A DNA stretch of 64,000 nt from NCBI GenBank assembly GCA_009777245.1, contig WRMF01000007.1:7037-71036 (forward strand). Reading direction: 5' to 3'. Positions 25,513 through 43,137 of this stretch are shown here, in pieces; position 1 is the stretch's first letter; each line of letters begins with the position of its first letter. A program made the translations under genes and the position numbers. The notes below the pieces were generated by a model, which worked only from the letters and a program-made list of their open reading frames with translations, did not search any database and had not been told where the DNA came from. The DNA comes from Betaproteobacteria bacterium. Its GTDB lineage: Bacteria; Pseudomonadota; Gammaproteobacteria; Burkholderiales; Rhodocyclaceae.

Positions 25513-25521
25513 TGATACCTA

Positions 25522-27198
25522 ATGGATGACTTGCCCTTGCCGCCTCTGTCGGCTCCGCCGGATGCCATAGCGTTTTACCGGAAAAATATGGAGCCGGTGT
25601 CCTTCGCCGCGCTACGCGCCGATATTGCCGCCGCCCGCAAAGCGTTGATGAGGCTTGACACGCCGGAGGTCGTGCTGTTTGATGCCGATGCTTATCTGTT
25701 TGTCGTTTGGCTGATGGCCTGCTGGCAGAACGGTCAGACTGCCTTGCTGCCGGTTGACGATTTGCCGACTACGCGCGCATTCCTTCCTATGCCCTGGGTT
25801 GGCGGCAACGAGGGCAGCACGCTACCCGATTGGTCTGGTGGCGCGACCGATGCCGCCGCATTCCCGGAATCTTCGCCGCAATTCGACTGCCCCGGAATCG
25901 TGCTTTTCACATCAGGCTCCAGCGGCATGCCCACCCGTATTTTCAAGACGCCGACCCAGTTGTGCCGTGAAGCCATGTTATTGCAACAGGCATTCGGCGA
26001 TGGCCTTCCTTCCGACGCTCGCTTTGTCGGAACCGTGCCGCATCAGCACATGTTCGGCTTGCCGTTCCGGCTGATATGGCCATTGTGGGCAGGTTATCCG
26101 ATCATCGTCGAACAGTTCCACCATCCGGAAGAATTCGGGCGACTGGAAACCTGCCCGCATGTGCTGATCAGCAGTCCGGCCACACTGAAACGATTGGCGC
26201 AACTGGAGGAGTTTTCCTCGCCGGCGAGTTTCCTTGCGACATTTTCGGCTGGCAGTCCGCTGCATGATGATGTCGCCGCCGCTTGCTCCGCAAGGCTGGC
26301 TACGCGGATAGTTGAAATCTACGGCAGTACTGAAGCGGGCAACATCATGCGCCGCATTGCTCCGGGCGGAGTCTGGCGCGAACAGCCGGGCGTCGCGCTA
26401 TCAATCAATGAGGATGGCTGCCTCAAAATACGCTCGCCGCTTTTGCCCAATGATGACTGGTTCCACACCCAGGATACCGCCGCGCGTGATGGCGATGGCT
26501 GGCGGTTGACCGGACGCGCCGACCGCGTCGCCAAGATCGAAGGGCGGCGGGTGTCTCTGGATGCGCTTGAATCGGCGCTGCTTGAGTTGCCGGAAGTGGC
26601 GGAGGCGCGCGCCGCGCCGTTTTATCGCGAGCGCGACGAGATTGTCGCCGCTGTGGTATTGAGCGAAGAGGGACATGCAAAATTACAGGCGCTTGGCAAA
26701 ATGCGTTTTGATCGCCGGATGCGGCGACTCCTGTCGGCATCTTTCGACCGCATTGCATTGCCGCGCCGCTGGCGTTATCTGTCGGCTCTGCCTTACAACG
26801 CAATGGGCAAAATCACTACCGCTTCCATCATGCAACTCTTTGAACGGCAAGCTCTGCCGCCGTTTGTCGTCGCTTCGCGGGCGGCGCATGAAATGGAGCT
26901 TACCCTGACGCTACGCGATTGTACGCAGGCGTTTGCCGGTCATTTCCCGCAAATAGCGATTCTTCCCGGCGTCACCCAGGCCGACTGGGCATTAAGACTG
27001 GCGGAACGGTATTTTCCCATTGCGGGGCGTTTCTCCGGTTTCCGCCAGTTGAAGTTCCAGCGCATTCTCCGCCCTGATGACGAGGTGTCGCTTACGCTTC
27101 GCTTTTCCCCTGAGAAAAACGAAGTGCGTTTTGCCTATGCGTCAAAGCATGGCGCACATTCACAAGGGCAAGCCTTGTTTGCCCATGCCGCCTCATGA
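25522..27198 (+). CDS. AMP-dependent ligase fused to a hot-dog domain, copy 2 (tandem paralog)
   Basis: 558 aa, collinear with copy 1 and about three-quarters identical by eye. It has the same motifs (LFTSGSSGMPTRIFKT, IYGSTEAG, FAGHFPQIAILPGVTQADWAL). Confidence 0.85.
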   Translation: MDDLPLPPLSAPPDAIAFYRKNMEPVSFAALRADIAAARKALMRLDTPEVVLFDADAYLFVVWLMACWQNGQTALLPVDDLPTTRAFLPMPWVGGNEGSTLPDWSGGATDAAAFPESSPQFDCPGIVLFTSGSSGMPTRIFKTPTQLCREAMLLQQAFGDGLPSDARFVGTVPHQHMFGLPFRLIWPLWAGYPIIVEQFHHPEEFGRLETCPHVLISSPATLKRLAQLEEFSSPASFLATFSAGSPLHDDVAAACSARLATRIVEIYGSTEAGNIMRRIAPGGVWREQPGVALSINEDGCLKIRSPLLPNDDWFHTQDTAARDGDGWRLTGRADRVAKIEGRRVSLDALESALLELPEVAEARAAPFYRERDEIVAAVVLSEEGHAKLQALGKMRFDRRMRRLLSASFDRIALPRRWRYLSALPYNAMGKITTASIMQLFERQALPPFVVASRAAHEMELTLTLRDCTQAFAGHFPQIAILPGVTQADWALRLAERYFPIAGRFSGFRQLKFQRILRPDDEVSLTLRFSPEKNEVRFAYASKHGAHSQGQALFAHAAS

Positions 27199-27932
27199 AG
27201 CCCGTCGCGCTCGTGCCGGTGTATAACCATGCCGCCAAGGTTGGCGCTGTGGCGCAGGCGTTGCGCGATCTCATGCTGCCGGTAATTCTTATTGACGACG
27301 GCTCCGACGCGGAATGCGCGGCTGCGCTTGATACTCTGGCTACGGCTCCGACAACCTCATTACTGCGGCTGCATAAGAACAGCGGCAAGGGTAGCGCGGT
27401 CATCATGGGTCTGCGCGAAGCGCACAAAATAGGATATAGCCACGCCTTGCAACTGGACGCCGACGGTCAGCATGACGCAGCAGTATTGCCGATGTTCCTT
27501 GAAGCGATGCTTGAAACTCCGCAGGCGGTTATTGTCGGCTTCCCGCAGTATGACGCGGATGTGCCGACTTCCCGTCTGTTTGGCCGTTATGCGACGCACA
27601 TCTGGGTCTGGATCAATACATTGTCAAGGCGTATCCGTGATTCGATGTGCGGGTTGCGAATTTATCCGCTTGCCGCCACGCTGCCGGTTCTCGATACGAT
27701 GCCGTCCATTAGCCGGATGGAGTTCGACACCGAAATTCTGGTGCGGCTGGATTGGGCTGGCGTGCCGATTCAGAACCTGCCGGTTCCCGTCTCCTATCCC
27801 CAGGATGGCATATCCCATTTTCGTCTTTTGCGTGACAATGCGCGGATCAGTTGGATGCACACTCGCCTGTTTTTCGGCATGTTGCGGCGGCTGCCGATGC
27901 TTCTTGGCCGCCACTTTTCGAGGCATGGCTGA
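27195..27932 (+). CDS. Family 2 glycosyltransferase (ApeJ-like)
   Basis: 245 aa, with VILIDDGSD and LDADGQHD motifs. ATGA overlap with the upstream gene. Confidence 0.85.
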   Translation: MKPVALVPVYNHAAKVGAVAQALRDLMLPVILIDDGSDAECAAALDTLATAPTTSLLRLHKNSGKGSAVIMGLREAHKIGYSHALQLDADGQHDAAVLPMFLEAMLETPQAVIVGFPQYDADVPTSRLFGRYATHIWVWINTLSRRIRDSMCGLRIYPLAATLPVLDTMPSISRMEFDTEILVRLDWAGVPIQNLPVPVSYPQDGISHFRLLRDNARISWMHTRLFFGMLRRLPMLLGRHFSRHG

Positions 27933-28870
27933 TGCACTGGGCAAAAATACAGGAAGCGGGCAGTTTGGCGGGGATGCGTTTTCTGCTCTCTGTCTACCGT
28001 ATTTTCGGGCGCTGGCCGTTTCGTTTTTTTCTGTTCTTCGTTCTCTTGTGGTTTTATGCGCGAAGGCGCGCTGCCCGCGAGGCGTCGCGCGATTATCTGC
28101 GACGACTGCGCGGCTTCAGCAATGGAGCTACGCCGCTGCCGACGCGGCTTAACGTCTTCCGGCATTTTCTGGCGTTTTCCGAAATCGCGCTTGACAAGCT
28201 CCTGGCTGTTGGCGCGGTCAATCCGCCGGAAGATTATCGTTTGGACGGACTCGAACACATTGACTCATTGCTCGCACAAAAGCGCGGGGCTGTTCTTGTC
28301 ACCGCGCATCTTGGCAATACCGACCTGTGCCGCAAGCTGGGGGAGCATTATGTCGACGCGCGCATAACGGTTTTAGCGCACACGAAAAATGCTGTCCGTT
28401 TCAACCGGCTGCTGAAAGAATGCAATTCCGAATACGACGTTGACCTGATTCAGGTGACTGATATTAATATCGGAACCGCCATTCTGCTGGCAGAGCGGGT
28501 CGAATCCGGCGGTTTGATCGTCATTGCCGGTGATCGCGTGCCGGTGGGCGATTCTGCGGCGACTGTGCGGGTTCCGTTCCTGGGGGCTGAGGCAAGTTTT
28601 CCGATCAGCCCCTATGTGCTTGCCGCTGCGCTGCAATGCCCGCTGCTTGCCATTTTCGGCGTTCGCCGCCTTGATGGCTTCGTCGTTATTCTGCGACCGA
28701 TTGCCGAATCGGTTTTGCTGCCGCGCCGCGCCAGAAGCGCGGCTGTCGTGCCATACGCCGCCGCTTTTGCCGAACTCCTGGAAGCGGAGTGCCTGAAAGC
28801 TCCTTTCCAATGGTCGAATTTTTACCAGTTCTGGGCGCTGCCGGAACCCGCCAATAAGGAGAGCAGCTAA
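27932..28870 (+). CDS. LpxL/HtrB-family (lipid A lauroyl-type) acyltransferase
   Basis: I chose MHWAKIQEAG as the start (ATG 27932, overlapping the upstream TGA). It has an N-terminal TM helix and an HX4D motif (TAHLGNTD). The length and profile fit LpxL-like proteins. Confidence 0.78.
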   Translation: MHWAKIQEAGSLAGMRFLLSVYRIFGRWPFRFFLFFVLLWFYARRRAAREASRDYLRRLRGFSNGATPLPTRLNVFRHFLAFSEIALDKLLAVGAVNPPEDYRLDGLEHIDSLLAQKRGAVLVTAHLGNTDLCRKLGEHYVDARITVLAHTKNAVRFNRLLKECNSEYDVDLIQVTDINIGTAILLAERVESGGLIVIAGDRVPVGDSAATVRVPFLGAEASFPISPYVLAAALQCPLLAIFGVRRLDGFVVILRPIAESVLLPRRARSAAVVPYAAAFAELLEAECLKAPFQWSNFYQFWALPEPANKESS

Positions 28871-29280
28871 TGCCGCTTACCGCTCGCATTGACTTGATCG
28901 TGCCGTTTCATGACCTTGACCCTATGGAAATATGCTGGCATGGCAACTATGTCCGCTATTTTGAACTGGCGCGTGTCGCGCTGTTGCAGCGGATAGATTA
29001 CGATTACCCGGAAATGCGCACTTCCGGTTACGCCTGGCCGGTGATCGAATTGTTCATTCGCTACGCGCATCCGCTGACATACCAACAACGCCTGCATATA
29101 GACGCCAGTCTTGTCGAATGGGAAAACCGGCTGAAAATCGCCTACGAAATTCGTGACGCGGCAAGCCAAAAACGGCTTACGCGCGGACATACTGTGCAGG
29201 TTGCCTTCGACATGCGGGCTAATGAAATGTGTTTTGTCAGCCCCGATGTTTTGCTCGAAAAATTGCAAGGTCATATATGA
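28870..29280 (+). CDS. 4HBT/YbgC-type acyl-CoA (acyl-ACP) thioesterase (ApeK-like)
   Basis: 136 aa, hot-dog thioesterase N-terminal pattern IVPFHDLDPMEICWHGNYVRYFELARV. Confidence 0.8.
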   Translation: MPLTARIDLIVPFHDLDPMEICWHGNYVRYFELARVALLQRIDYDYPEMRTSGYAWPVIELFIRYAHPLTYQQRLHIDASLVEWENRLKIAYEIRDAASQKRLTRGHTVQVAFDMRANEMCFVSPDVLLEKLQGHI

Positions 29281-29897
29281 TAATGAAACGAACATTCTTG
29301 CTGTCATGGTTCTGGCTTCTCCTTGCCGCTCCGGCGCTGGCTGCCGACCCGGCCTTGCTGGACGCTGTTCAATCCCGATTGACTGTTGACGCGGTAATTC
29401 GCGGCGAATTCACCCAGACCAGACAACTGGCAGGCATTAAAAAGCCGCTGGTGGCGACTGGCTCGTTCGTTGTTGAAAAAACAAGGGGGGTATTGTGGCG
29501 CGCATTGGCTCCTTTTCCGCAGACGACAAGAATCACCCAGGGCGAAATCCTGCAAAAGGATGGGGAACGTGTGCTGATGGCCTTGCGAGCCGACAGGGAA
29601 CCGGCGGTAAATTCCATCAGCCGCGTCTTGTTTTCGCTGTTCGCCAGTGACATGTCGGCATTGGCTGAATACTTCGATCACGAAGGTCAAACAGTCGGCG
29701 ATACCGGCTGGCAATTGTCTTTTACGCCGCGCGAGGCTGGCTTGAAGACCGTCATAGGTTCGCTGGTTCTGGAAGGCGACGATGTTGTCCGCAAGGTGAT
29801 ACTGACCGGCGCAGCAGGTGACATTACTGTTATTTCCTTCTCCAACATCGCTACTGCCGCCCTGCTGACCGCCGATGAACTCGCCCAATTCGAGTAA
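29277..29897 (+). CDS. LolA-like outer-membrane lipoprotein carrier family protein (ApeL-like)
   Basis: Signal peptide MIMKRTFLLSWFWLLLAAPALA. About 200 aa, LolA-fold size, in the conserved position before the MMPL exporter. Confidence 0.72.
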   Translation: MIMKRTFLLSWFWLLLAAPALAADPALLDAVQSRLTVDAVIRGEFTQTRQLAGIKKPLVATGSFVVEKTRGVLWRALAPFPQTTRITQGEILQKDGERVLMALRADREPAVNSISRVLFSLFASDMSALAEYFDHEGQTVGDTGWQLSFTPREAGLKTVIGSLVLEGDDVVRKVILTGAAGDITVISFSNIATAALLTADELAQFE

Positions 29898-32268
29898 CGA
29901 GCTGCGCTATGCCCGCTGCCATCGCGCGTTGGCCTGGGGTTGGCTCTGCGTTCTGGCATTGCTGGCCGCCATGCTCTTCGCGCATGTTCTACCCTGGCGC
30001 GGGCAGATAGATACCGACCTTCTGGCGCTGCTTCCCGTTGATGAGCGAAACCCGCATGCCGAAGCCGCGCTTAAAACCATGACGCAACGCGGCGAGCGGG
30101 AGTTGGCGTTGCTCCTGGTCGCGCCGGATGCCGCCACAGCGGAGCGAGCCGCCCATCGAGTCCGCGAAGTATTGCATGACGCGCCGCTGATAGCGCAAGC
30201 TCCCCAGGCGCAAATCGAGGCCATGCGCGACCTGTACTTCCCATATCGCGCCGGGTTCATTACCGAGCAGGACATGCGCTGGATTGCAGAAACCAATCAA
30301 GAGGCGCAGGCGGAGCGCGCCTTGTCGCTTGCTTATCAGTTATTTACCGGCAGCGCTTTGAACTGGCGCGATGATCCTTTCGGCTTTTTCGGCAACTGGA
30401 TGATGCGACTGGGAGAGGCCAGTCCGGCGCGACCCTATGGCGATATATTGATGGTACAGAAGGCGGATCGCCATTATGCGGTTTTGCTTTATCAATTGAC
30501 AGACAGCGCGTTTTCGTCAGATCTTCAGACGCGCCTTGCCGCTGATTTGCAGGCTGTCCGAAATGATCTGGCAGAGCGGTTTCCCGATGTGGAAATGCTG
30601 CGGGCGGGCGTCGTTCTCTTTGCGGCAGCGGCGGCGGAGCAGGCTCGTTTTGAAATGTCGCTGATCGGTAGCGGCGCGTTGCTTGGTTGCTTGTTGCTCG
30701 TCTGGGCGATTTTTCGCAATTTCAGGGCATTGCGCCTGATCCTGCTTTCGCTTGCCGCAGGCGCATTGGCGGGAGTGTCGTTGACATGGTTGATATTTGA
30801 CCGCATCCACGCGCTGACATTGGTGTTCGGCGCAAGTCTGATCGGGGTTGCCGTTGACTACGGCGTTCTGACGCTGGCGCAACATCTGGACGGCTCCGGC
30901 GCAAGGGAGCGTTGGCTTCGTTTCCGCCGTCTGTTGCCGCCATTGGCTCTGGTGCTGATTGCGCCTGCGCTGGCCTATCTCGGTTTGTTGCTTATGCCGT
31001 TTCCGGGGTTGCGGCAGATGGCTTGCTTTGCCGTTAGCGGCATCATAGGCGCATGGCTTACGGTCATGCTGTGGTATCCATATTTGCTGCCTTCGTCATT
31101 GCCGACAACGCCCCTTGCCGCACGCTTGATGCAAATGTTGCAACATTGGCCACGCTGGCGGGGAACTCCCGCGCAATGGCTCGTCGCCGCGTTGGCAGCC
31201 ATTGTCATCGGCGCGGGTATGCTGCAACTGAAAACGAATGATGATGTCCGTAGCCTCGTAAATACCGATCCTGAACTGCTGCGCGAACAGGTTGATGTTG
31301 CCGTAGCGCTTGAACTACCAAGCCCGGCGCAGCTTTTTTTGATTACCGCCGCTACTCCAGAAGAAGTGTTGCGGCATGAAGAGGCGTTATTGGCGAAGCT
31401 CTCGCCGTTCTTTGCCGACGGCAAATTGAGCGGATATGACGCAATCAGCCGTTGGCTGCCTTCAGAACAACGGCAACAGGAGGCGCGAGAGGCGCAGCGG
31501 AAATTGACCAATGCCCGCGCCATGCTGGCGGAAGAATTTGAACTTTCCGCCGATTGGGTCGCCGTATCGCATACAGCGTCATTGACGGCGGGTGAATGGC
31601 TGGAAAGTCCGGCGGCGGCTTCATTGCGTTATTTATGGCAGGGCGAGCGCGATGGGCGCTATTCGAGCATCGTTTTGCTGAAAGGATTGCGCGATGCGGA
31701 TACCGCGCGTCAATTAGCGACATTGAGCGGCGCCAATGTTCAATGGGTCGACAAGACCGCTGATGTCTCAATGTTGATGGGACACTACCGAACGTTGTTG
31801 TCGTCGGTGCTGATCGCCGCCTATCTGCTGGTTCCGCTGGTGTTGTTGCCGTTCTTCCGCCGCCGGACATGGCGGGTCATCATGCCTTCGTTGCTGGCGA
31901 CGTTGGGGACATTGGCGATAATGGGACATGTCGGCATTCCCTTGCAGCTTTTGAACGTGCTGACGCTCCTCCTGGTGTTCGGCATGGGCATTGACTACGG
32001 CCTGTTTCTGGTGGCGCAGAAGAGCGATGCCCGCGCCTTTCTCGCCATTTGCGTCGCCGCGTTGCTGACATTGGCGGCATTCGGCCTCTTGGCCGCAAGC
32101 AGCACTCCGGCGTTACGGACGATTGGACTGACCACCGCGCTTGGCATTGGTCTGGCATGGCTATTCACGCCGCTATTTCGCCTGCCGGAGCCGGAAGGGT
32201 CTATACTGTCCGACCTTGATACGCAGGCGAACAGATCGTCATATACTGAATTGAAAGCCACTGATTGA
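29875..32268 (+). CDS. MMPL/RND-superfamily exporter (ApeM-like)
   Basis: 797 aa. Two bundles of about 6 TM helices separated by soluble loops, with repeated GxGIDYG motifs (GVAVDYGVL, GMGIDYGLF). Confidence 0.85.
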   Translation: MNSPNSSNELRYARCHRALAWGWLCVLALLAAMLFAHVLPWRGQIDTDLLALLPVDERNPHAEAALKTMTQRGERELALLLVAPDAATAERAAHRVREVLHDAPLIAQAPQAQIEAMRDLYFPYRAGFITEQDMRWIAETNQEAQAERALSLAYQLFTGSALNWRDDPFGFFGNWMMRLGEASPARPYGDILMVQKADRHYAVLLYQLTDSAFSSDLQTRLAADLQAVRNDLAERFPDVEMLRAGVVLFAAAAAEQARFEMSLIGSGALLGCLLLVWAIFRNFRALRLILLSLAAGALAGVSLTWLIFDRIHALTLVFGASLIGVAVDYGVLTLAQHLDGSGARERWLRFRRLLPPLALVLIAPALAYLGLLLMPFPGLRQMACFAVSGIIGAWLTVMLWYPYLLPSSLPTTPLAARLMQMLQHWPRWRGTPAQWLVAALAAIVIGAGMLQLKTNDDVRSLVNTDPELLREQVDVAVALELPSPAQLFLITAATPEEVLRHEEALLAKLSPFFADGKLSGYDAISRWLPSEQRQQEAREAQRKLTNARAMLAEEFELSADWVAVSHTASLTAGEWLESPAAASLRYLWQGERDGRYSSIVLLKGLRDADTARQLATLSGANVQWVDKTADVSMLMGHYRTLLSSVLIAAYLLVPLVLLPFFRRRTWRVIMPSLLATLGTLAIMGHVGIPLQLLNVLTLLLVFGMGIDYGLFLVAQKSDARAFLAICVAALLTLAAFGLLAASSTPALRTIGLTTALGIGLAWLFTPLFRLPEPEGSILSDLDTQANRSSYTELKATD

Positions 32269-32277
32269 GGATAGAAG

Positions 32278-35200
32278 ATGCCGAGAATTTTCGACAATAT
32301 CAAAACATCTTTGTTGCCAGCTCTGCAAGAGACGCTCAAGGTTGCCGAGCGCGCGGATTTTTGCGTTGGATACTTCAATCTTCGCGGCTGGCGACACCTT
32401 TCTGATTATGTTGATAAGTGGGCAGGGGGCGACGGCCAATGTTGCCGATTGCTGGTTGGTATGCACGTTGCACCGAACGATGAACTCCGGCAAGCCCTTC
32501 GTACTTGTGCGAATGGCGACAGCCTGGATAACCAGACAGTGCACCGGGAAAAACGCCGCATTGCCGAGGGGTTTCGTCAACAACTGACTTTTGGCGCTCC
32601 GACCAATAAAGATGAGGCTGTGTTGCGCCAGCTTGCGGCGCAACTTCGCGCCAGAAAGTTGGTCGTCAAGGTCTATCTGCGTACTCCATTGCATGCCAAG
32701 CTATATTTGTCGTATAGGCAAGATGCCAATAATCCGGTGACTGGCTTTCTGGGCAGTTCAAACCTGACGCTTGCCGGTCTAGTCAAACAGGGCGAACTGA
32801 ATGTTGATGTGCTTGAACATGACGCCTGCAACAAGTTGGTGGATTGGTTTGAAGAACGCTGGAATGAGAATCCCCGCTTGTGTCTTGACATCTCGCAGGA
32901 ACTCGCTGAAATCATTGATGAGAGTTGGGCGGGAGATCGTCTTGTGCTGCCGTATCATGTCTATCTCAAGATGGCCTATCACTTGGCGCAGGAAGCGAGG
33001 GCTGGTCTCTCGGAGTTTCGTATTCCTTCGGTATTTGGGGACTCGCTTTTCGATTTTCAGGTCGCGGCGGTCAAGATTGCCGCGCACCACCTGAACAAAC
33101 GTGGGGGCGTACTGATCGGGGATGTGGTTGGTTTGGGCAAATCAATGATGGCTACTGCGCTGGCAAAGATATTCGAGGATGATTACAACACTGAAACACT
33201 CATTATCTGCCCCAGGAACCTGGTTCCGATGTGGGAAGACTATGTATATCGTTATCGCCTGCGCGCCAAGGTACTGTCACTGTCAAGGGTCATCAATGAG
33301 TTGCCGGAGAAAATGCCGCGCTACCGACTGGTCTTGATTGACGAATCGCACAATCTGCGCAATAAGGAGGGCAAACGCTGGAAAGTGATCCGTGAGTATA
33401 TCGAGCGCAATGAAAGTCTGACCATTCTGCTTTCAGCCACGCCCTACAACAAGACTCACCTTGATCTTTCGGCGCAACTTGCATTGTTCCTGAATGCAGA
33501 TACCGACATAGGCATTCGCCCGGAAAAACTGCTTGCCGAGTTGGGGGGAGAACATGAATTTATTCGTCGTCACCAATGCGGCGTGCGGTCGCTGGCGGCG
33601 TTTGAAAAGAGCGAATTTACCGATGATTGGCGCGATCTTATGCGTTTGTATATGGTGCGTCGCACGCGCGGCTTCATCATGCAACACTATTCCAGCGAAG
33701 ACGAGCGCGGTAAATATCTGTTGTTTTCGGATGGGCGCAAGTCCTATTTTCCGAAGCGTCTGCCCAAAAACCTGAGCTTTGAGATTGACGATACGAATCT
33801 GTCTGACCCTTATGCGCGGTTCTATAGCGATCATGTGGTCAATGCGATCAATGAGCTGATTTTGCCGCGTTATGGACTTGGCAATTACATTGCTCCCAAG
33901 CCGAAGGCTCCGCCAACACCTGGTCAGGCCAAAATAATTGAGGGACTCTCGCGTGCCGGTATGCGCCTGAAGGGCTTTTGCCGCACCAATCTCTTCAAGC
34001 GGCTGGAGAGCGCGGGACCGGCGTTTATCCTGTCCATTGAGCGCCATATTCTGCGTAATTTCATCGTATTGCATGCTTTGGAAAACGGTCTTGATATTCC
34101 GCTTGGCGCGCAAGGCTCGGAATTGCTGGACCCGCGCCATTACGACGAAGACCAGGACGGAGCGCTTGCCGATGATGAAGGCGATGAGGAGGCCGATACC
34201 ACCATCAGTAACGGGCTGCGAAGTGAGACAGACTATCGAGCGCAAGCCGCAAAGGCGTATGCCAAGTACAGAGGCGCGTTGAAAACCCGCTTCAAATGGC
34301 TGCCTGGCTCGCTTTTTGTCAATGCTCTGGCCAATGACTTGCTTGCCGACGCAACAGCCTTGCTGGACGTGCTGCGCGCCTGCGGTGAATGGTCGCCGGA
34401 TGCGGACAACAAGCTTGCTGCCTTGATCGAGCTTATCCAGAAAAAACACCCAAGGGAAAAACTCCTCGTTTTTACCCAGTTTGCGGATACCGCCCGTTAT
34501 TTAGGCGCACAGCTAGCCGCGCGTGGTGTCAAGCAGGTAGGAGAGGTCACCGGCCATAGCGTTGACCCTACCCAACTGGCCTGGCGTTTTTCGCCTGCAT
34601 CGAGCGGCAAGCGCGAAGAAATAAAAAAGACCGACGAATTACGAGTGCTTATTGCTACTGATGTGCTCTCCGAAGGGCAAAATCTGCAAGACGCGCATAT
34701 CATCGTCAACCATGACTTGCCCTGGGCCATCATTCGCCTGATTCAGCGCGCGGGGCGGGTGGATCGTATCGGTCAGCAGTCTGATGTCATTTTGTGTTAT
34801 TCCTTTGTTCCTGCTGATGGCGTTGAGCGTCTCATCAATCTGCGCGCCCGGGTCAAGCAACGCCTGATCCAGAATGCTGAAGTTGTAGGTTCTGACGAGA
34901 GCTTTTTTGATGACGACACGGAAGAAAAATTGATTCGTGATCTCTATACGGAGAAAAACGGCATTCTGGACGATGACGATACTGAGGTCGATCTGGCGTC
35001 TTATGCCTATCAAATCTGGAAAAACGCCACGGATGCCGATCCTTCGCTTGCCACCAGGATTGAAGCTATGCCCAACGTTGTTTTTGCCACCAAAGCGCAC
35101 GAACACAGTCCGATGTCGCCCAAGGGTGTGCTGGTGTATATGCGCACTGCCCAGGACAACGATGTGCTTTCCTGGATAGATGAAGCGGGCGAGCCGGTCA

Positions 35201-35674: not shown

Positions 35675-38600
35675 ATGCACCCCGAACAATTTCAGCAACT
35701 GCTTGACCAATTCGCGCTGGAGCAGCTTTTCAACGAGCTTGGCTGGGATAGCCCTGCCTTGAAGCAACTGTCAGAAGTCAAGGTAAATGGCGAGACTTTC
35801 AAGCTTGTCCAGATAGCGCACAAGCGCGGTGTTCAGGTGTTCCTTTGTTCGCCGGATAGGCGAGGCCGGATTCCGGAGCGTTCTGTATTGCTGCAAATAG
35901 AAAAAGAAGCCGCCAGGATCGCTTATGAGCATCTGCTGATATTCGCCGACACGGACAAAACCATGTTGACGTGGTTGTGGGTCTTGCGTGCGCCGGGGCA
36001 ACCGATGCGCGCCCGTACCCACACCTGGCGCAAGGGGCAAACGGGTGAATCGCTGCGGCAAAAGCTCATGCAAATCGTTTGGAAGATCGAAGAAGAAGAG
36101 GCCATTACGCTTAACGATGTAATCACAGGTATGGGCAGAGCCTTTGATCGTGATCGAGTTACCAGGAGTTTTTATGACAAATTCAAGGATCAGCACAAAG
36201 ACTTTGCTGAATTTATCGAGGGATTGAGCGTTGTCAGCGACAGGGACTGGTATGCCTCGCTGATGTTGAATCGCCTTATGTTTGTCTATTTCATCCAGAA
36301 AAAGGGCTTTCTTGATGGCGACGACAACTATCTAGTCAATCGCATGGCAGAGGTTCGGGATACTGTCGGCAAAGGCAGATTCCACAGCTTCTACCGCCTG
36401 TTCCTGTACCGTTTATTCCATGAGGGATTTGGGCAGCCCAGGGGCGACCGCGATCAGGAGTTGAATGGTTTAATTGGCGATGTGCCGTACCTGAACGGGG
36501 GGCTTTTTTCTCTGCATGAACTTGAAGAAGCTAACCCCGATATAGACATTCCCGACGAGGCTTTCGAGCAGCTGTTTAAATTTTTCGGTAAATGGGAATG
36601 GCATCTGGACGACCGTCCGCTGGCCTCTGGACGCGAGATCAACCCTGACGTGCTCGGCTATATATTTGAGAAGTTCATCAACCAGAAGCAGATGGGGGCG
36701 TACTACACCAAGGAAGACATTACCGGATACATCAGCAGGAACACGGTGGTTCCTCACTTGCTGGAGCAGGCGCAAAAACGTTGCAAGGTGGCATTTGAAG
36801 GCGAGACATCTGTATGGAATCTGCTAAGGGACGACCCTGATAGCTACATATATCCGGCTATGAAAACCGGCGTCATTGATGCGAATGGCAAAATTGTGCC
36901 GGAAGCGGCCTTGCCGGATTTTGTGCAGACCTGCATGAAAGACCCCAGGGCGCGGATGTTTGAGCGTCGTTACAATTTGGGCGAAGCCGTGTTCCATACC
37001 GCTACCGGCGAGCGCGGCACGCTGCCTACCGAAACCTGGCGGGAATATGCGGATCGCCGCCAGCGTTGTCTGGATATTCGAGAAAAGCTGACCAACGGCA
37101 AAGTAAAAAGCGCCGACGATCTTATTACCCTGAATCTGGACATCAGCCAATTTATGCAGGATGTGATTGATACCTGCACCAGTCCTGTTCTGCTACGCGC
37201 TGTCTGGCAGGCCATTGCCGGGCGTGTGCCGGAAAAGTCCAACGGAAAATTCCGCTACGGCATTGCCATTCTCGATCCCACTTGCGGTTCCGGGGCGTTT
37301 TTGTTCGCCGCGCTCAACATTCTGGAGCCGCTCTACGAAGCCTGCCTGGATCGCATGGAAGATTTTGTCGAGGACGCAAAAAAGCTCGGCAGAGCCGGGG
37401 AAGCTGATTTCGTCAAGCTGTTGGACGAAGTGAAGGAACACCCTTCGCGCCGCTATTACATTCTCAAAAATATCATCCTGCACAATCTGTTCGGCGTGGA
37501 CATCATGCCCGAGGCGGTGGAAATCTGCAAGCTGCGCCTGTTTTTGAAGCTGGTGTCCCAGGTGGATGCGGGGCGTGATCTGGAGCCATTGCCTGATATT
37601 GACTTCAACATCCGCGCAGGCAATACTCTGGTGGGTTACGCTACCAAAGCGCAGTTTGACGCATCGGGCGATCTGGCCAGCAATCAAGCCCACAAAGACC
37701 GCATCAGAGCCGACATTGCCGACCTTTCCGAATATTTCGACCGTTTCCGTGAGCAGCAGATTGTTTATGGCGGCAAGGTTACGGCGCAGGACAAACGTAA
37801 TTTGCGCGACAAGCTCAAAGGTTTGAGCGAGGAACTTGATCGCTATCTTGCCAACGACTACGGCATTGACCCGGAGAAAAAGAAAACCTTTGATGCCTGG
37901 CGCAAAAGCCATCAGCCTTTTCATTGGTTCGCAGAGTTCTACGGTGTTATGAGTAAGGGCGGCTTTGATGTGGTGATTGGAAATCCGCCGTATGTCGCCA
38001 GAAGCAGAGTTACAGGCTACACAGTACAAGGCTATGCCACGGCAAACTGCGCGGACATCTACGCTTGGTGTCAAGAGCGCGTTATCGCCATTGCTAACTC
38101 CAAAGCTCGCACCGGCATGATCGTTCCGCTCAGCCTGTCGTTCAGTAGTGATTTCGATGTGCTGCGCAAGCTGATCTATACGCAATATAGCGCCAACTGG
38201 TTCTCGCATTTCGCGCGCATTCCAGCCGCGCTGTTTGCCGCTGATGTACGCGTGCGCAATACCATTCACATCGGCAAAATCGGCAGCGGCAACACACCAA
38301 GCCAGCAATACACATCGCGCCTGCACCGCTGGTTTGAAGTGGCACGCCCTTATCTCTTTGCCACGTTGTCTTACGCCAGCTTCACTCCAGAACGGTGGAA
38401 GCGCCGTATCCCCAAACTCAACACACAAGCGCTAATTTCTACTTTTGAACAGCTACTAGCGCCTAGCAACCGCCATACGGTTAAGTGCTGCTTGAGTCGC
38501 AGCGTCACGCCGCACCGCCTGCATTTCAAGAAGACTGCCTACAACTGGCTGTCCTTTACGCACGAAGAAGCGCCGTGCTTCGATGCACGCGGCAAGCGTG

Positions 38601-39028
38601 TGCCGCAAACGCAATATGATGATATCAGCTTTACTAGTACCGAAGAGCGCGAATTGCTATTCCACCTGCTCAACGGCAAACTCCAGTTTATCTTCTGGCT
38701 TGCTATTGGCGACGACTTTCACGTTACCAAATGGACTTTCAACGAATTACCGTTGCATCCGGTCAAGTTGTCGGCAGAGCATAAGCAGCAACTTAAAAAG
38801 CTGACTCCCGCGTTAAAAACGGCAGTGGAAAAAGCCGTACAATACAAGCTCAACGCAGGCAAGCGCGTAGGCAACTACAACCTGTCCAAATGTCGCCACA
38901 TCACCGACCAGGCAGACCACATCTATGCACAGGCTTTTGGTATGACTCATGTATGGGATGACATCGAATTACTCTACAGGCAAACGGTTAAGACTGACTT
39001 TGAAGATAATGGAGACGACGAAGCATGA
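35675..39028 (+). CDS. Eco57I-family gamma-class N6-adenine DNA methyltransferase with putative target-recognition region
   Basis: 1117 aa. Motif I ILDPTCGSGAFLFAA and motif IV VIGNPPYV. Helical pre-MTase region NRLMFVYFIQKKGFL...INPDVLGYIFEKFINQKQMGAYYT. A GGAG SD lies 9 nt upstream. Confidence 0.9.
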   Translation: MHPEQFQQLLDQFALEQLFNELGWDSPALKQLSEVKVNGETFKLVQIAHKRGVQVFLCSPDRRGRIPERSVLLQIEKEAARIAYEHLLIFADTDKTMLTWLWVLRAPGQPMRARTHTWRKGQTGESLRQKLMQIVWKIEEEEAITLNDVITGMGRAFDRDRVTRSFYDKFKDQHKDFAEFIEGLSVVSDRDWYASLMLNRLMFVYFIQKKGFLDGDDNYLVNRMAEVRDTVGKGRFHSFYRLFLYRLFHEGFGQPRGDRDQELNGLIGDVPYLNGGLFSLHELEEANPDIDIPDEAFEQLFKFFGKWEWHLDDRPLASGREINPDVLGYIFEKFINQKQMGAYYTKEDITGYISRNTVVPHLLEQAQKRCKVAFEGETSVWNLLRDDPDSYIYPAMKTGVIDANGKIVPEAALPDFVQTCMKDPRARMFERRYNLGEAVFHTATGERGTLPTETWREYADRRQRCLDIREKLTNGKVKSADDLITLNLDISQFMQDVIDTCTSPVLLRAVWQAIAGRVPEKSNGKFRYGIAILDPTCGSGAFLFAALNILEPLYEACLDRMEDFVEDAKKLGRAGEADFVKLLDEVKEHPSRRYYILKNIILHNLFGVDIMPEAVEICKLRLFLKLVSQVDAGRDLEPLPDIDFNIRAGNTLVGYATKAQFDASGDLASNQAHKDRIRADIADLSEYFDRFREQQIVYGGKVTAQDKRNLRDKLKGLSEELDRYLANDYGIDPEKKKTFDAWRKSHQPFHWFAEFYGVMSKGGFDVVIGNPPYVARSRVTGYTVQGYATANCADIYAWCQERVIAIANSKARTGMIVPLSLSFSSDFDVLRKLIYTQYSANWFSHFARIPAALFAADVRVRNTIHIGKIGSGNTPSQQYTSRLHRWFEVARPYLFATLSYASFTPERWKRRIPKLNTQALISTFEQLLAPSNRHTVKCCLSRSVTPHRLHFKKTAYNWLSFTHEEAPCFDARGKRVPQTQYDDISFTSTEERELLFHLLNGKLQFIFWLAIGDDFHVTKWTFNELPLHPVKLSAEHKQQLKKLTPALKTAVEKAVQYKLNAGKRVGNYNLSKCRHITDQADHIYAQAFGMTHVWDDIELLYRQTVKTDFEDNGDDEA

Positions 39029-39522
39029 AACCCTTGCCCATCGCCTTGCCGCCTCAATGCGCCCGGCGGATAGAGCCTGAAATTGCCGAGCGAATCGTCG
39101 GCGTCGGCAATGCGGATTTACTTGAAACACACTTGCTTGGTTTCGTCGCTTCACGCGAATGCCCCGGTCATGTCCTGCTCGAAATTCTCGACCGCATACC
39201 GGAATGGGTAGAAGCCAACCGCGTCATCATCAGCGGTTTTCACTCGCCGCTGGAACAACAGGTGTTGCGCTCGACGCTACGCCGCAACGGGCGCGTGGTC
39301 AAGGCGCTGGCGCGGAGCATGAGCGACTACCGACCAACCGCCGAAGAGCGCGAACCACTGGCGGATGGCAGGATGCTGGTCATTACCGCCTGCCTGCCGA
39401 AAGTGCGCCGCGTCACCCGCGAAACCGCGCTGGCGCGCAACCGCCTGGTATTGGCTCTGGCAACGGAGATTGTCGCGCCCTATCTCTCCGCCAGCAGCCC
39501 GCTTGCCGACATGTTGATTTAG
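39025..39522 (+). CDS. Stand-alone DprA/Smf-like Rossmann (SLOG) domain protein
   Basis: 165 aa. By-eye alignment to the DprA core: LGFVASRECPG (vs IGSR), VIISGFHSPLEQ (vs SGxAxGID), ALARNRLVLALATEIVAP (vs ARNRiIaaLsd.vvV). ATGA overlap with the MTase stop. Confidence 0.7.
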   Translation: MKPLPIALPPQCARRIEPEIAERIVGVGNADLLETHLLGFVASRECPGHVLLEILDRIPEWVEANRVIISGFHSPLEQQVLRSTLRRNGRVVKALARSMSDYRPTAEEREPLADGRMLVITACLPKVRRVTRETALARNRLVLALATEIVAPYLSASSPLADMLI

Positions 39523-39717
39523 AGGCGTACACCCCAAGCTATCCAGAATGGCTGAATCGCTGCCATGATCATCTATCCGCCCGAAAAGCATTCATGATGA
39601 AATGCGAAAATCATTGCATTGCGTGCTGCGAACGCCGCGAACGCGAATGTCTGAAAATTTGCTATCCTGTTATTTCTTCATGGAGTATGCGGTTTATTTT
39701 CACAGGCAAAGGACAAC

Positions 39718-42700
39718 ATGAGCGGCATTACCGATTTCATTGGACGCTGGAAGGTTTCCGGCGGTTCAGAGCAGGCAAACTCGCAGTCATTCCTCAAGGA
39801 ATTGTGCGATGTTCTGGATTTGCAGCAGCCAGACCCCGCCGATCCTGTCAATGAAAAGAACGCCTATGTCTTTGAGCGCAAGGTTTATGTCACACGCGGC
39901 GACGGCACGAAAGAACTCAAAAAGCTCGATCTGTATTACAAGGGTCGTTTTGTGCTGGAGTCCAAACAAGGGCAGGACGCCGTAGGGGCGAAAAGTTTTT
40001 CGTCCCTGCTATCCGGGGGGATGACCGCGTCAAGCGCAGTCAAGCGGGGAACGCGCCAGTGGGAGGATTCCATGCAGCGCGCCAAGCGGCAGGCGGAAAA
40101 CTACATCCGCAGCCTGCCTGCCTCTGAAGGTCGCCCGCCCTTTCTCATCGTCACAGATGTGGGCTACTGCTTTGACCTCTACACGGAATTTACCTGCACC
40201 GGCGGCCTGTACCTGCATTTTCCCGATACCAGGACTTACCGCGTCATGCTGGATGATTTGGCAAGGCCGGAAGTTCGCGCTTTGTTTCAGGCTATCTGGA
40301 AAGACCCGCTTTCCCTTGACCCGTCCAGACGGTCGGCCAAAGTAACCGAGGAAATAGCCGACCATTTGGCGCTGCTTGCGCGTTTGCTGGAAAAGGACGG
40401 GCATGAGCCGGAGCAGGTCTCGCAATTTCTCATGCGTTGTATTTTTTCGATGTTTGCCGAGGATATGAGCCTTATTCCGGCAGGCAGCTTTACGGATATT
40501 ATCCAGAAATCCATTTTGCAACCGGGCGGATACAAGCATTACTTAAATGATTTATGGAATGCCATGAACAAGGGCGAGTTTTCCGTGCTTCTGGACAAAC
40601 AACTGCTGCGCTTCAACGGTCACATTTTTTACGACCCGGAAGTATTGCCGCTGGAGCGTGAGCATCTGGGCATTCTCCTTGAAGCCGCGAAAGCCGACTG
40701 GCGGGAAGTGGAGCCGGCCATTTTCGGGACATTGCTGGAACACGCACTGAATCCGAAAGAGCGGCACAAGCTGGGGGCGCATTACACGCCTCGCGCCTAT
40801 GTGGAACGTCTGGTCATCCCCACGGTCATGCAGCCATTACGGAAGGAATGGGATGATGTGCAGACCACGGCAAGCGTCTTGTTCAATCAGGGCAAGGAAA
40901 AGGAAGCGTGCAAGACCGTTGCCGGATTTCACGAACGGCTACGCGGCATTCGAGTTCTTGACCCGGCCTGCGGCTCCGGCAATTTCCTCTATGTCACGAT
41001 GGAGCACATGAAGCGGCTCGAAGGCGAAGTGCTGCAAGCTCTCGCAAGCTACGGCGAGCGGCAGGCAAGCCTGTTGCAGATTGACCCGCACCAGTTTCTG
41101 GGGTTGGAAATCAACCCCCGCGCCGCGCATATTGCGGAAATGGTGTTGTGGATCGGTTTTTTGCAATGGCATTTCAGGACGTGCGGCAATGTGAACCCGC
41201 CAGAGCCGGTAATTCGGCAATTCGACAACATCCAGCACAAGGACGCGCTGATTGCCTATAAAGGCTGGAAATACGCCACGGATGAGGACGGCAAGCCGAT
41301 AACCCGCTGGGATGGCGAGACTTACAAGACCGATCCCGCAACCGGACGGCAAATGCCGGATGAAAAGGCCGTTGTCGTGGATGAAGTCTATGAGGGCGTG
41401 AAGGCGGCAGAATGGCCGGAAGCTGATTTTATTGTGGGCAATCCGCCGTTTATTGGCGGTTGGATGAAGCGCAGCGTTTTGGGACATGGCATGTTTGACG
41501 CGCTGACGAAGACTTACGCGCGACTTCCTGAATCCTGCGATTTTGTCATGTACTGGTGGCACAAGGCTGCGGATTTGGTACGCGCGGGCAAGGTCAAACG
41601 CTTTGGCTTCATCACTACCAACAGCATTACCCATGTCTTTAACCGCCGCGTGGTTTCCCTGCATCTGGGAGACAAAAAACCGCTGCGCCTCGTCTTTGCC
41701 GTGTCGGATCATCCCTGGGTGGAAGCCTCTGACAGCGCGGCGGTGCGTATTGCCATGACTGTCGGGGAGAAGGGCAAAGGCGAAGGCGTGCTCGCCACTG
41801 TTGTGGAAGAACGCGAGACAGGCGACAAGGAAATAGCTGTAACCATGACTGAGCAAAATGGCGTCATCCACGCGAATTTGCGCCAGGGAACCGATGTGAC
41901 AAAAGCTGAATCATTGGCAGCTAATGATGAACTCTGCTGCCCGGGGGTAAAACTACATGGTTCAGGTTTCATTGTTACCCCGATGCAGGCGGCTTCTCTG
42001 GGATTGGGGCATATTTCAGGATTGGAGCGGCATATCCGACTCTACAGAAACGGACGGGACATAGCTAATGGTCTGCGCGGCGTAATGGTTATTGACTTGT
42101 TCGGGCTTACGGCGAAAGAAGTACGCCATAAATACCCGGAGGTTTACCAGTGGGTATATACGCGAGTAAAGCCAGAACGGGACGCTAATAACAGGAACAG
42201 CTACCGCGAGAATTGGTGGGTATTTGGAGAACCACGGAAAGAATTTCGTCCGGCTCTGGCAGGTTTGCCTCGTTATATTTCCACAATTGAAACTGCCAAG
42301 CACAGATTTTTTTTATTTTTGCCTGCTGAGGTGTTGCCGGATAATAGACTGGTGAACATAGCTAGCGCAGATGCCTACCATCTTGGAGTGTTGTCCAGCA
42401 ACATTCATGTGCGTTGGGCGATGGCAGCAGGAGGCACATTAGGGCCTGGTCGGGTATACACCAAATCCCGTTGCTTTGATACTTACCCATTCCCCGATGC
42501 CAACCCCGAACAACAAGCCCGCATCCGCGATTTGGGCGAACAACTGGATGCTCACCGGAAGAAACGGCAGAGCCTTCATCCTGACCTCACGATGACCGAT
42601 ATGTATAACGTGCTGGAAGCCTTGCGTCAGAGCCGGATGCTTACGGATCGGGAAAGAAACATCCATGAACAAGGACTTGTGTCTGTGTTGCGTAATTTGC

Positions 42701-43137
42701 ATGATGAACTGGATGCCGCCGTATTCGATGCTTACGGCTGGTCTGCCAATCTCACAGACGAAGAAATCCTCTCCCGCCTTGTCGCCCTGAACGCCGAGCG
42801 CGCGGAAGAAGAAAAGAACGGACAAATCCGCTGGCTGCGTCCGGAATACCAGAGCAAATCCAGGGCGGAGCGCAGCAAAATGGTTCAGGATGCGCTTGCC
42901 CTGGATTCCCGGCCGGAACCTGCCGCCAGGGGCAAAAAAGGCGCCAAGACCGCGCCCAAGTCTGCCTGGCCTTCCGATCAGCTGGAACAAACCCAGGCCG
43001 TGCGCGACGCGATAAATACCCTGCGGGAAACCGCCATAGCCATCACGCCGGAGACTGTGGCAAAACGCTTCACCCGCCCCAACAACGACAGAGTGAAGGA
43101 AATTCTACGGGCGTTGGAAACGCTGGGGTTTGTGTAG
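39718..43137 (+). CDS. MmeI-family type IIL/IIG restriction-modification enzyme (nuclease + N6-adenine MTase + TRD)
   Basis: 1139 aa. N-terminal D-X9-E-X-K motif ([15 protein letters not shown]), MTase motif [15 protein letters not shown] and motif [11 protein letters not shown], with a long C-terminal region. Confidence 0.82.

Follow-up and report, generated by a model that had tools for sequence, protein, structure and literature searches.

The window studied here, i.e., the whole 64,000 nucleotides (nt) of DNA analysed (positions 7,037 to 71,036 of the forward strand of contig WRMF01000007.1, GenBank assembly GCA_009777245.1, from a betaproteobacterium of the Rhodocyclaceae), contains an operon of three genes: one for a nuclease fused to a helicase-like motor (gene 1), one for a DNA methyltransferase (gene 2), and a short third one (gene 3), the product of which has the predicted fold of the DNA-processing protein DprA/Smf. 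Gene 3 belongs to a clade of DprA-like proteins characterised by the motif GFHSPxE, and this clade is linked to the methyltransferase and the helicase-nuclease in a non-random manner. DprA-like modules in defence (ShosA, PsyrA) and systems consisting of a methyltransferase and a phospholipase D (PLD)-motor protein are already known; the clade itself, as well as the combination of a DprA-like gene with such a pair, appears to be new. The function favoured here, albeit tentatively, is that of a DNA-binding accessory of the methyltransferase.

Concerning the family assignment, the Pfam profile PF02481 (DNA_processg_A) reaches 36.2 bits on gene 3, above its gathering score of 29.6, and is matched at positions 33-160 of its 212, whereas the NCBIfam equivalog dprA (TIGR00732) reaches 27.3 bits against a cut-off of 191; since the first threshold is passed and the second missed, gene 3 is to be regarded as a relative of the DprA domain and not as an equivalog. 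Its AlphaFold2 model, calculated from an alignment of 36 sequences, has a mean predicted local distance difference test score (pLDDT) of 96.9 and a predicted template modelling score (pTM) of 0.92. In the Foldseek comparison of this model with the PDB, ranks 1-14 are all occupied by DprA (from S. pneumoniae, H. pylori, and R. palustris) or by ShosA from E. coli, with E-values of 1e-9 to 1e-6 and template modelling (TM) scores of 0.65-0.78, the best DprA matches being 3UQZ, 4LJK, 5MLL, and 3MAJ. After the DprA group follow molybdenum cofactor (MoCo) carrier proteins (2IZ7, 6Y01) and LOG proteins (1T35, 5ZBK, 2A33) at E-values of 7e-3 to 6e-2 (probability 0.97-1.0), and a fold search against BFVD gave weak generic SLOG matches. 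Because the Pfam gathering score is exceeded and a confident model ranks in this way, the assignment to DprA/SLOG is sound at the level of a predicted structure. The likeness to the DprA Rossmann core, which a preliminary description of this DNA had drawn by eye, is thereby supported by both profile and predicted fold, and the structural comparison suggested there places DprA and ShosA first, followed by LOG and the MoCo carriers.

The same description had let the 165-amino-acid (aa) open reading frame (ORF) begin inside the stop codon of the methyltransferase gene, which agrees with the ATGA overlap found here (Table 1), and the peptides quoted in it are all present in gene 3 (VASRECP at aa 41-47, VIISGFHSPLEQ at aa 67-78, ARNRLVLALATEIVAP at aa 137-152, and SASS at aa 154-157). 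The overlap implies translational coupling of the methyltransferase and gene 3. In a set of 5.8 billion proteins, 839 homologues of gene 3 were found at E<=1e-3, all of them 165-181 aa long, with the best non-self match at E=4e-73. When 1.84 billion representatives, each standing for one 50%-identity cluster, were searched exhaustively with HMMER, 1091 matches were obtained at E<=1e-3, of which 373 reached <=1e-10 and 14 reached <=1e-30. The overlapping ORFs at 39159-39854 (+), 39277-39591 (-), and 38969-39154 (-) have no family match in Pfam. Given these 839 homologues and the lack of a family match for the overlapping frames, gene 3 is, judged by sequence, a real gene and not a chance ORF.

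In comparison with the DprA of S. pneumoniae (SpDprA), aa 27-150 of gene 3 align to residues 98-220, and the chain ends around 15 residues later, at aa 165. The lack of the sterile alpha motif (SAM) and winged-helix regions, as stated in the preliminary description, is evident from both alignment and model; what had been overlooked is that the Rossmann domain itself is shortened. Its last 50 residues or so are absent, leaving no counterpart of SpDprA ~235-282. It is in this part of SpDprA that the RecA-binding triad E235/D243/E265, M238, and the dimerisation zone G249-D275 lie (PMC4066776). The view that gene 3 is not a DprA of the competence type is thus in line with the loss of this segment and with the equivalog score (27 vs 191 bits). 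A canonical competence DprA was rejected on these grounds, together with the altered loop described below and the setting in a defence operon. Proteins of the GFHSPxE clade are currently annotated as 'DNA-processing protein DprA', a label that suggests competence and is probably wrong for this clade.

Two motifs of the DprA domain are involved in the binding of single-stranded DNA (ssDNA): motif 1 is G-S/T/A-R (G50-R52 in the DprA of H. pylori, HpDprA), motif 2 is F/L/Y-x-x-R-N/D or the variant A-M-x-R-N/D, and R143-N144 of HpDprA hold the inserted base (PMC3950713). In gene 3, motif 1 keeps S-R with the G replaced by A (A42), and R44 aligns with SpDprA R115 and HpDprA R52; R138-N139 of motif 2 correspond to HpDprA R143-N144. 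At the N-terminus of the helix lining the base-binding pocket of DprA, gene 3 possesses SGFHSPLEQ in the position of GxAxGID, as confirmed by alignment with SpDprA (SGLAKGID) and ShosA (SGLAYGID). This reading of the loop had been correct from the beginning, but its meaning as the mark of a separate clade, different from DprA, ShosA, and PsyrA, had been missed: since SpDprA, ShosA, and bona fide PsyrA (SGGARGVD) all retain GxAxG(I/V)D, the GFHSPxE proteins constitute a distinct branch.

This branch comprises 373 clusters (50% identity, E<1e-10). In an alignment of 36 short relatives, reaching down to 26% identity, G28, S43, G71, F72, and R138 are invariant, and L33, P47, H73, P75, E77, R97, R103, R129, and N139 are conserved in at least 90% of the sequences, resulting in the consensus GN..LL / (C)S..CPG / ISGFHSPxE / AR......R / R.T...A..RN. 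The conserved residues S43, H73, P75, E77, R97, R103, R129, R138, and N139 map to elements of the HpDprA pocket (loop beta3-alpha3, alpha4, and alpha6). The proteins are basic, with a median isoelectric point (pI) of 9.4 in the clade. Most members keep the remaining 35-45 or so C-terminal residues of the domain, and the subfamily of the window (at least 48% identity to gene 3) ends after SASSPL; because this end of the Rossmann domain is present in the wider clade, its loss is not what defines the clade. Pfam, NCBIfam, and PADLOC contain no model dedicated to it, and neither the three-gene arrangement nor a DprA-like clade with GFHSP is described in the full-text literature searched, which did not include the paper defining SLOG, such that an earlier mention there is possible.

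Concerning the genomic context, 116 loci anchored on gene 3 were collected from genomes, metagenomes, and IMG/VR, of which 100 remained after near-identical copies had been dropped (single loci are cited by their numbers, L001 etc.). The order is that of the window: helicase-nuclease of the HKD/PLD-SNF2 type, Eco57I-type methyltransferase, and DprA-like gene. Counting de-duplicated loci and genes on the same strand, and requiring at least 3.5 kb upstream for the methyltransferase and at least 7.5 kb for the helicase, the methyltransferase precedes the DprA-like gene in 15/17 loci of the close subfamily and 12/18 of the distant clade (about 30-45% identity), i.e., in 27/35 overall, and the helicase does so in 11/13 and 9/15 loci, respectively. 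The -4 ATGA overlap exists in 25/31 close and 5/21 distant loci (30 of 52 in total with both genes seen, not de-duplicated). Starting from the helicase instead, a clade member follows the methyltransferase in 8/9 complete IMG/VR loci. The flanking genes differ between loci, and the named hosts belong to Competibacteraceae, Rhodocyclaceae, Burkholderiales, Gallionella, Verrucomicrobiia, and Nitrospirales; a phage collection searched with the gene 3 protein gave no match. The survey of genomic context that the preliminary description had called for thus reveals a distribution which is not random with respect to methyltransferase and helicase genes.

Plasmids of Synechocystis, Pelobacter, and Rhodococcus also carry pairs of helicase and methyltransferase without a DprA-like gene; behind the methyltransferase gene lies one for a DUF2513 protein (Synechocystis pSYSX), one for an 88-aa hypothetical protein (Pelobacter), or nothing (Rhodococcus). 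Judged by protein lengths, no compensating extra domain is evident in the helicase or the methyltransferase of these systems. On plasmids of Nostoc and Dolichospermum, homologues of the helicase have less clear partners: in Nostoc punctiforme pNPUN01 (L108, 11078-15103) the partner has 1341 aa and is annotated as 'RNA-binding domain-containing protein', and its N-terminus is 40% identical to gene 2 over 366 aa. Since the pair occurs without it, gene 3 is an accessory and not an obligate loader. The earlier suggestions of an ssDNA or nucleotide sensor, or of a loader for the helicase-nuclease, stay hypothetical; the one physical hint, the conserved translational coupling, points to the methyltransferase rather than the helicase.

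Gene 1 possesses one HKD motif (H139-x-K141...GSSN, about nt 32692-32769), a Walker A motif GLGKS (33130-33144), and DESH (33340-33351). It matches 'HKD+Snf2' (C3a139) in PADLOC at 3e-46 and, in the sequence search against the PDB, Chd1, ISWI, Rad54, and RapA; across close loci it is around 81% identical. Gene 2 exhibits motif I as DPTCGSGAF (nt 37274-37300) and motif IV as NPPY (nt 37982-37993), and matches REase_MTase_IIG (PDLC03628) in PADLOC over its full length at 2.6e-249. Pfam and PDB sequence searches of its N-terminal 500 aa revealed no nuclease domain of the kind that a type IIG enzyme carries in the same polypeptide as its methyltransferase, the recognisable nuclease being gene 1. 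Compared with 12 full-length homologues, its identity per 40 residues falls from 0.65-0.93 (aa 41-760) to 0.21-0.38 (aa 801-1117), which is the pattern expected of a target-recognition domain (TRD). Gene 3 is around 72% identical across loci, in contrast to 21-38% for the TRD; since its variation does not follow that of the TRD, gene 3 is no specificity subunit. The hypervariable stretch (aa ~790-1117) lies between the conserved body of the methyltransferase and the conserved gene 3, a layout that would favour swapping of TRDs by recombination; inverted repeats suggesting TRD shuffling were not found between 31.5 and 43.6 kb, and Rfam, repeat, promoter, and terminator scans of the same interval gave nothing above background.

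Table 1. Features of the three-gene operon and of gene 3 (positions within the window)
Feature	Position	Strand	Remarks
Gene 1: HKD/PLD nuclease fused to SNF2-family ATPase, 1126 aa	32278..35658	+	Pfam PLDc_2, RE_NgoFVII, SNF2-rel_dom, Helicase_C
Gene 2: gamma-class N6-adenine DNA methyltransferase, Eco57I/PglX type, 1117 aa	35675..39028	+	Pfam Eco57I 1.7e-24
Hypervariable C-terminal ~330 aa of gene 2, putative TRD	38042..39025	+	directly upstream of gene 3
ATGA start/stop overlap of gene 2 and gene 3	39025..39028	+	ATG 39025-39027 over TGA 39026-39028
Gene 3: single-domain, C-terminally truncated DprA-fold (SLOG) protein, GFHSPxE clade, 165 aa, pI 9.0	39025..39522	+	
A42-S43-R44, counterpart of DprA ssDNA motif 1 (G-S/T/A-R)	39148..39156	+	alignment
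S70-G-F-H-S-P-L-E77, replaces DprA SG(L/G)AxG(I/V)D loop	39232..39255	+	clade signature
A135-L-A-R138-N139, counterpart of DprA ssDNA motif 2	39427..39441	+	alignment

Taken as a whole, the operon would constitute an ATP-dependent defence system similar to restriction-modification (R-M), with gene 3 as its accessory third subunit. Gene 2 would read a short asymmetric site and mark the host DNA, its C-terminal TRD being swappable, and gene 1 would act as the restriction effector on unmarked DNA; because its SNF2 motor carries one HKD nuclease half-site, it is expected to act as a dimer. Gene 3, the synthesis of which the ATGA overlap would tie to that of the methyltransferase, has kept the base/ssDNA pocket of DprA in a remodelled form and has lost the part responsible for dimerisation and RecA binding. 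It would bind DNA at or next to the methyltransferase and tune the balance of methylation and restriction; for example, it could stimulate methylation or connect the recognition of a site with the motor-nuclease. Loading of RecA would not be part of its role. That gene 3 is such an accessory, recognising DNA that is single-stranded or opened locally, or else an extruded base, is the explanation we prefer, although our confidence in it stays somewhat short of calling it probable. Fold, clade, truncation, synteny, translational coupling, the catalytic motifs of the partners, and the dispensability of gene 3 in some lineages are demonstrated; DNA binding, the methyltransferase as partner, and the direction of the effect are what we infer. 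This explanation is favoured by the translational coupling to the methyltransferase, the basic charge, the R-N pocket motif, and the independence from TRD variation, and, by way of analogy, by two precedents discussed below, namely the action of HpDprA on methyltransferases and that of the small protein MtsB in the system MANTIS. That the core pair behaves like an R-M system is likewise argued by analogy, as the methyltransferase Slr6050 of Synechocystis, encoded beside a PLD-SNF2 gene, could not be deleted.

Several observations weigh against a DNA-binding accessory of the methyltransferase. On plasmids, 0/5 inspected helicase-methyltransferase pairs carry a DprA-like gene, and a tblastn search with gene 3 against 72,556 plasmids (PLSDB) gave no match. 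In several loci, cassettes are inserted between methyltransferase and DprA-like gene, and clade members also exist in the absence of helicase and methyltransferase (L018, L035, L069, L087, L113-L122), both genes being missing around the clade gene in about a fifth to a third of the informative loci. SNF2 motors translocate on duplex DNA, and a role of gene 3 on ssDNA is therefore not obvious. Within motif 1, S43 is invariant in the wider clade and the R44 position is variable; furthermore, R103 of gene 3 sits where HpDprA has its pocket tyrosine Y108, and since this Tyr and the GxAxGID loop are replaced, the ligand may not be DNA. Tight binding of ssDNA by HpDprA requires a dimer with two pockets (PMC3950713), and gene 3 is devoid of the region aligned to the SpDprA dimerisation zone. 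DNA binding by gene 3 and its contact with the methyltransferase are themselves predictions only.

The replaced pocket residues lead to the first alternative, according to which gene 3 is a sensor of a nucleotide or small molecule, its SLOG pocket, remodelled to contain a His, a Glu, and three to four Arg, gating the methyltransferase or the motor-nuclease allosterically; candidate ligands would be a phage-made or stress nucleotide, S-adenosylmethionine or S-adenosylhomocysteine, NAD, or a derivative of ADP-ribose. H73, E77, R97, R103, and R129 indeed resemble a phosphate/base site more than the hydrophobic base pocket of DprA, and SLOG relatives bind nucleotides: structures of LOG with AMP and of MoCo carriers come next in the Foldseek ranking (E-values of 7e-3 to 3e-2), and the SLOG domains of ThsA bind isomers of cyclic ADP-ribose (PMC11204291). 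The similarity to DprA and ShosA is, however, far above that to any ligand-binding SLOG protein, the R-N motif of DprA and the basic charge suit DNA at least equally well, and neither a cyclase nor a TIR or any other signal-making gene is conserved in the cassette, such that we regard a sensor as unlikely.

There is a further possibility, to which we give rather little credence: the GFHSPxE clade might be a new pocket reader on the DprA fold, in which the read-out of an extruded base or a nucleotide licenses the SNF2-PLD motor nuclease. The distinguished state would be, for example, unmethylated vs N6-methylated adenine on opened DNA, or a phage-derived nucleotide. If true, R-M-like systems would be regulated in a way for which they have no described example so far, and it would explain why the same domain is found beside other helicases and in a five-gene block of IMG/VR contigs.

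It is similarly doubtful that gene 3 acts as a brake in the manner of PsyrA/RqlI, i.e., that it is bound to the helicase-nuclease and keeps it in check until infection lifts the restraint, e.g., via phage ssDNA or single-stranded DNA-binding protein (SSB). PsyrA/RqlI, the antitoxin of PsyrTA and RqlHI, is the nearest profile of gene 3 (PADLOC, 8.5e-17), and the alignment of the clade with true PsyrA by hhalign has a probability of 97.9%. RqlI/PsyrA physically binds and restrains its RecQ-like partner, the domain bound being the phosphoribosyltransferase (PRTase) domain (PMC4670107); this very domain is absent from the operon of the window. The clade adjoins other helicases as well, namely a UvrD-like one (L097) and a superfamily 1 helicase with an RNase H-like domain (L057); another member is located near a RadA-like protein. 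Translational coupling, though, ties gene 3 to the methyltransferase rather than the helicase, and helicase-nuclease and methyltransferase persist as pairs without any DprA-like gene, in which the methyltransferase appears to be the protective component, since slr6050 is not deletable.

Gene 3 might also be a self-standing small gene of defence or DNA metabolism that lodges at the 3' end of the operon and is functionally untied to it. Such a gene would be in agreement with the loci in which helicase and methyltransferase are missing, with the two-gene core working in nature on its own, and with the cargo (ParE/Phd, Hsp70-TPR with UvrD, AlbA_2-HATPase_c_4) which splits it from the methyltransferase in several loci. 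Yet order, strand, and ATGA overlap are kept even where identity drops from 76% to about 30%, in unrelated chromosomal contexts and several phyla, and eight of the nine helicase-anchored loci contain the gene, which renders this explanation very improbable. About as improbable is the assumption of an enzyme, with H73 and E77 catalysing a reaction on DNA or a nucleotide, e.g., a LOG-like hydrolysis of N-glycosides or the removal or trimming of a base, by which gene 3 would become a second effector or a repair step. His and Glu are conserved in at least 90% of the clade, and SLOG enzymes of the LOG family use, in the corresponding place, a PGGxGTxxE loop that includes a Glu (motif as given in PMC3950713); nevertheless, there is no detectable sequence match to LOG, the similarity in fold to LOG is weak, and the characterised proteins of the DprA branch (DprA, ShosA, RqlI) are binders and not enzymes. 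The most remote idea, a RecA-blind decoy competing with host DprA or SSB for incoming ssDNA (in transformation, conjugation, or infection by ssDNA phages), such that unrecombined DNA becomes unmethylated duplex and is then restricted by the system, is consistent with retained ssDNA-pocket motifs in the absence of a counterpart of the SpDprA RecA-binding/dimerisation segment, but it is purely conjectural, and members of the wider clade do possess the C-terminal end of the Rossmann domain.

Apart from these considerations, several arrangements around the DprA-like gene were observed. In L004 (9517-9982), and likewise in L008, a ParE/Phd toxin-antitoxin pair occupies the slot between methyltransferase and DprA-like gene, the ParE ORF starting at the ATGA of the methyltransferase; the further cargo in this slot consists of Hsp70-TPR with a UvrD-like helicase (L083), AlbA_2-HATPase_c_4 (L070, L093), and AAA_14/DUF4143 (L058). 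In a subset of close loci (L001, 10513-11343; L002, L003, L014, L025, L026, L032, and L036), the next gene after the DprA-like one overlaps it by 1 nt and encodes a protein of 276-277 aa, which is 81-100% identical among these loci, has no Pfam or PADLOC match, is absent from the window, and may be a fourth component. A protein with SLFN_AlbA_2, HATPase_c_4, and a winged helix-turn-helix adjoins the DprA-like gene in 12 loci (L018, 8368-9786; L010, 10508-12514; L001-3, L019, L025, L032, L038, L070, L078, L093), and in L018 and L038 it is present with helicase and methyltransferase not found. In L024 (1056-2402, P0195), the DprA-like domain of the GFHSP clade is fused to a Y1_Tnp transposase domain (IS200/RAYT-type, acting on ssDNA) in a protein of 448 aa. 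Finally, L113 (2473-12778) contains a conserved block of proteins of 561, 756, and 436 aa, a short DprA-like protein of the GFHSP clade, and a protein of 1395 aa, on IMG/VR contigs of 54-93 kb; similar blocks are found in L114, L115, and L117-L122, and the proteins of 561, 756, 436, and 1395 aa have no Pfam or PADLOC match.

In the window, a complete type IIG enzyme of the MmeI family (39718-43137, +; MmeI_N, MmeI_hel, MmeI_Mtase, MmeI_TRD; PADLOC PDLC03627, 1504 bits) is situated 195 nt after the three-gene operon, and because it adjoins the operon, the two form a small defence islet of two methylation-based systems. On the other side, an aryl-polyene-like lipid cluster (23800-32268, +) stops 10 nt before the start of gene 1. 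It contains two AMP-binding plus ApeI-dehydratase proteins, a glycosyltransferase of family 2 (GT2), an LpxL-type acyltransferase, and an MMPL/HpnN-like exporter, and has a GC content of 57-61% compared with 51-55% in the defence genes. The upstream ORF of 797 aa was rejected as a member of the system: it is the exporter closing this cluster and is not conserved beside the system elsewhere.

In methylation-based defence beyond classical R-M (BREX, DISARM, MANTIS), poorly understood accessory proteins decide between methylating and cutting. To these systems a compact one of three genes is added here, composed of a motor-nuclease, a methyltransferase with TRD, and a DprA-fold protein of 165 aa, which is widespread in environmental Proteobacteria and other phyla, and for the core methyltransferase family of which a motif has been assigned, tentatively, in a model cyanobacterium. 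If gene 3 controls methylation or restriction, the system would offer a tractable minimal model for the control of self and non-self, and the DprA fold would have been recruited into phage defence a third time independently, after ShosA and PsyrA.

Among the known systems, PsyrTA shares with gene 3 a DprA-like module in a defence setting. True PsyrA has around 400-460 aa, a helix-turn-helix tail, and retained GSR and SGGARGVD motifs; it scores 577 bits on the PsyrA model, whereas gene 3 reaches 59 bits with the core only (positions 122-245 of 398), and its neighbours contain no RecQ or PRTase domain as in a PsyrT-type partner. PsyrTA itself is embedded in R-M and BREX operons: a bona fide PsyrT-PsyrA pair separates hsdS from hsdR in a type I R-M operon on an E. 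coli IncF plasmid (NZ_OX030731; L107, 2560-6077), and PsyrTA has been reported inside a BREX locus of Halomonas (PMC11232893). ShosA, the antitoxin of ShosTA (PDB 8ZVA, 9VZO), has with 0.78 the highest TM-score of all matches and is a DprA-like phage-defence protein that binds ssDNA. It consists of a SAM domain and a complete DprA domain, forms dimers, binds RecA, and has a PRTase toxin as its partner (PMC12961424), whereas gene 3 has neither a SAM domain nor a full DprA domain nor a PRTase gene beside it, and a PADLOC ShosA score of 2.5e-4. Membership in PsyrA or ShosA was therefore rejected, the matches being partial and the PRTase partner lacking.

The nearest analogue studied mechanistically is MANTIS (BREX-related type 2, Gao_RL; MtsA-D). 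Its methyltransferase hemimethylates a 6-bp site, a PLD-superfamily 2 (SF2) protein restricts, a DUF499 ATPase loads the methyltransferase, and the small protein MtsB stimulates methylation (bioRxiv 10.64898/2026.09.23.753747; PMC12839542). Both systems thus possess an N6-adenine methyltransferase with an asymmetric site (predicted for gene 2), a PLD nuclease with an SF2 motor, and a small accessory; in the operon of the window, however, the accessory is of the DprA fold and the motor a bona fide SNF2 one. A DUF499/BrxC-like ATPase (MtsA) is absent from genes 1-3, from the flanking genes, and from the recurrent neighbours of the related loci, and DUF3870 occurs neither in nor next to the operon. 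DrmA and DrmB (DUF1998) were found neither in the operon nor in related loci, the matches to DrmD and DrmMI being partial. Membership in MANTIS/BR or in DISARM (class 1) was rejected for lack of DUF499, DUF3870, DrmA, and DrmB.

The plasmid pSYSX of Synechocystis carries a homologous PLD-SNF2 gene (51% identity) and Slr6050 (M.Ssp6803IV; 40% identical to gene 2 over the full length) in the same order, but no DprA-like gene. Between Slr6050 and the PLD-SNF2 gene, annotated as 'helicase-related protein', are a VapC toxin gene and a gene for a small hypothetical protein, and the DUF2513 gene comes after (L105, 8001-15818). Slr6050 was tentatively assigned as M.Ssp6803IV with the asymmetric motif GAm6AGGC, and its knockout never segregated; the helicase gene beside slr6050 is not mentioned in that study (PMC6105098). 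That the neighbouring motor-nuclease makes the loss of Slr6050 lethal is what we infer from the present analysis, not a proposal of the authors of that study.

Competence DprA/Smf (PF02481), finally, has in common with gene 3 the Rossmann-type fold, the initial GN..LL, S-R in motif 1, and R-N in motif 2; it differs by its SAM and winged-helix domains, the RecA-binding/dimerisation segment, the GxAxG(I/V)D loop, and the pocket Tyr (Arg in gene 3), and it is not, as gene 3 is, a member of a defence operon. HpDprA is encoded on the chromosome, serves competence, and affects unrelated Type II systems in trans, whereas gene 3 is a dedicated and divergent DprA-like gene built into the operon. HpDprA physically binds methyltransferases, stimulates methylation, and blocks restriction (PMC3597690), and this behaviour towards R-M enzymes is the function proposed here for gene 3.

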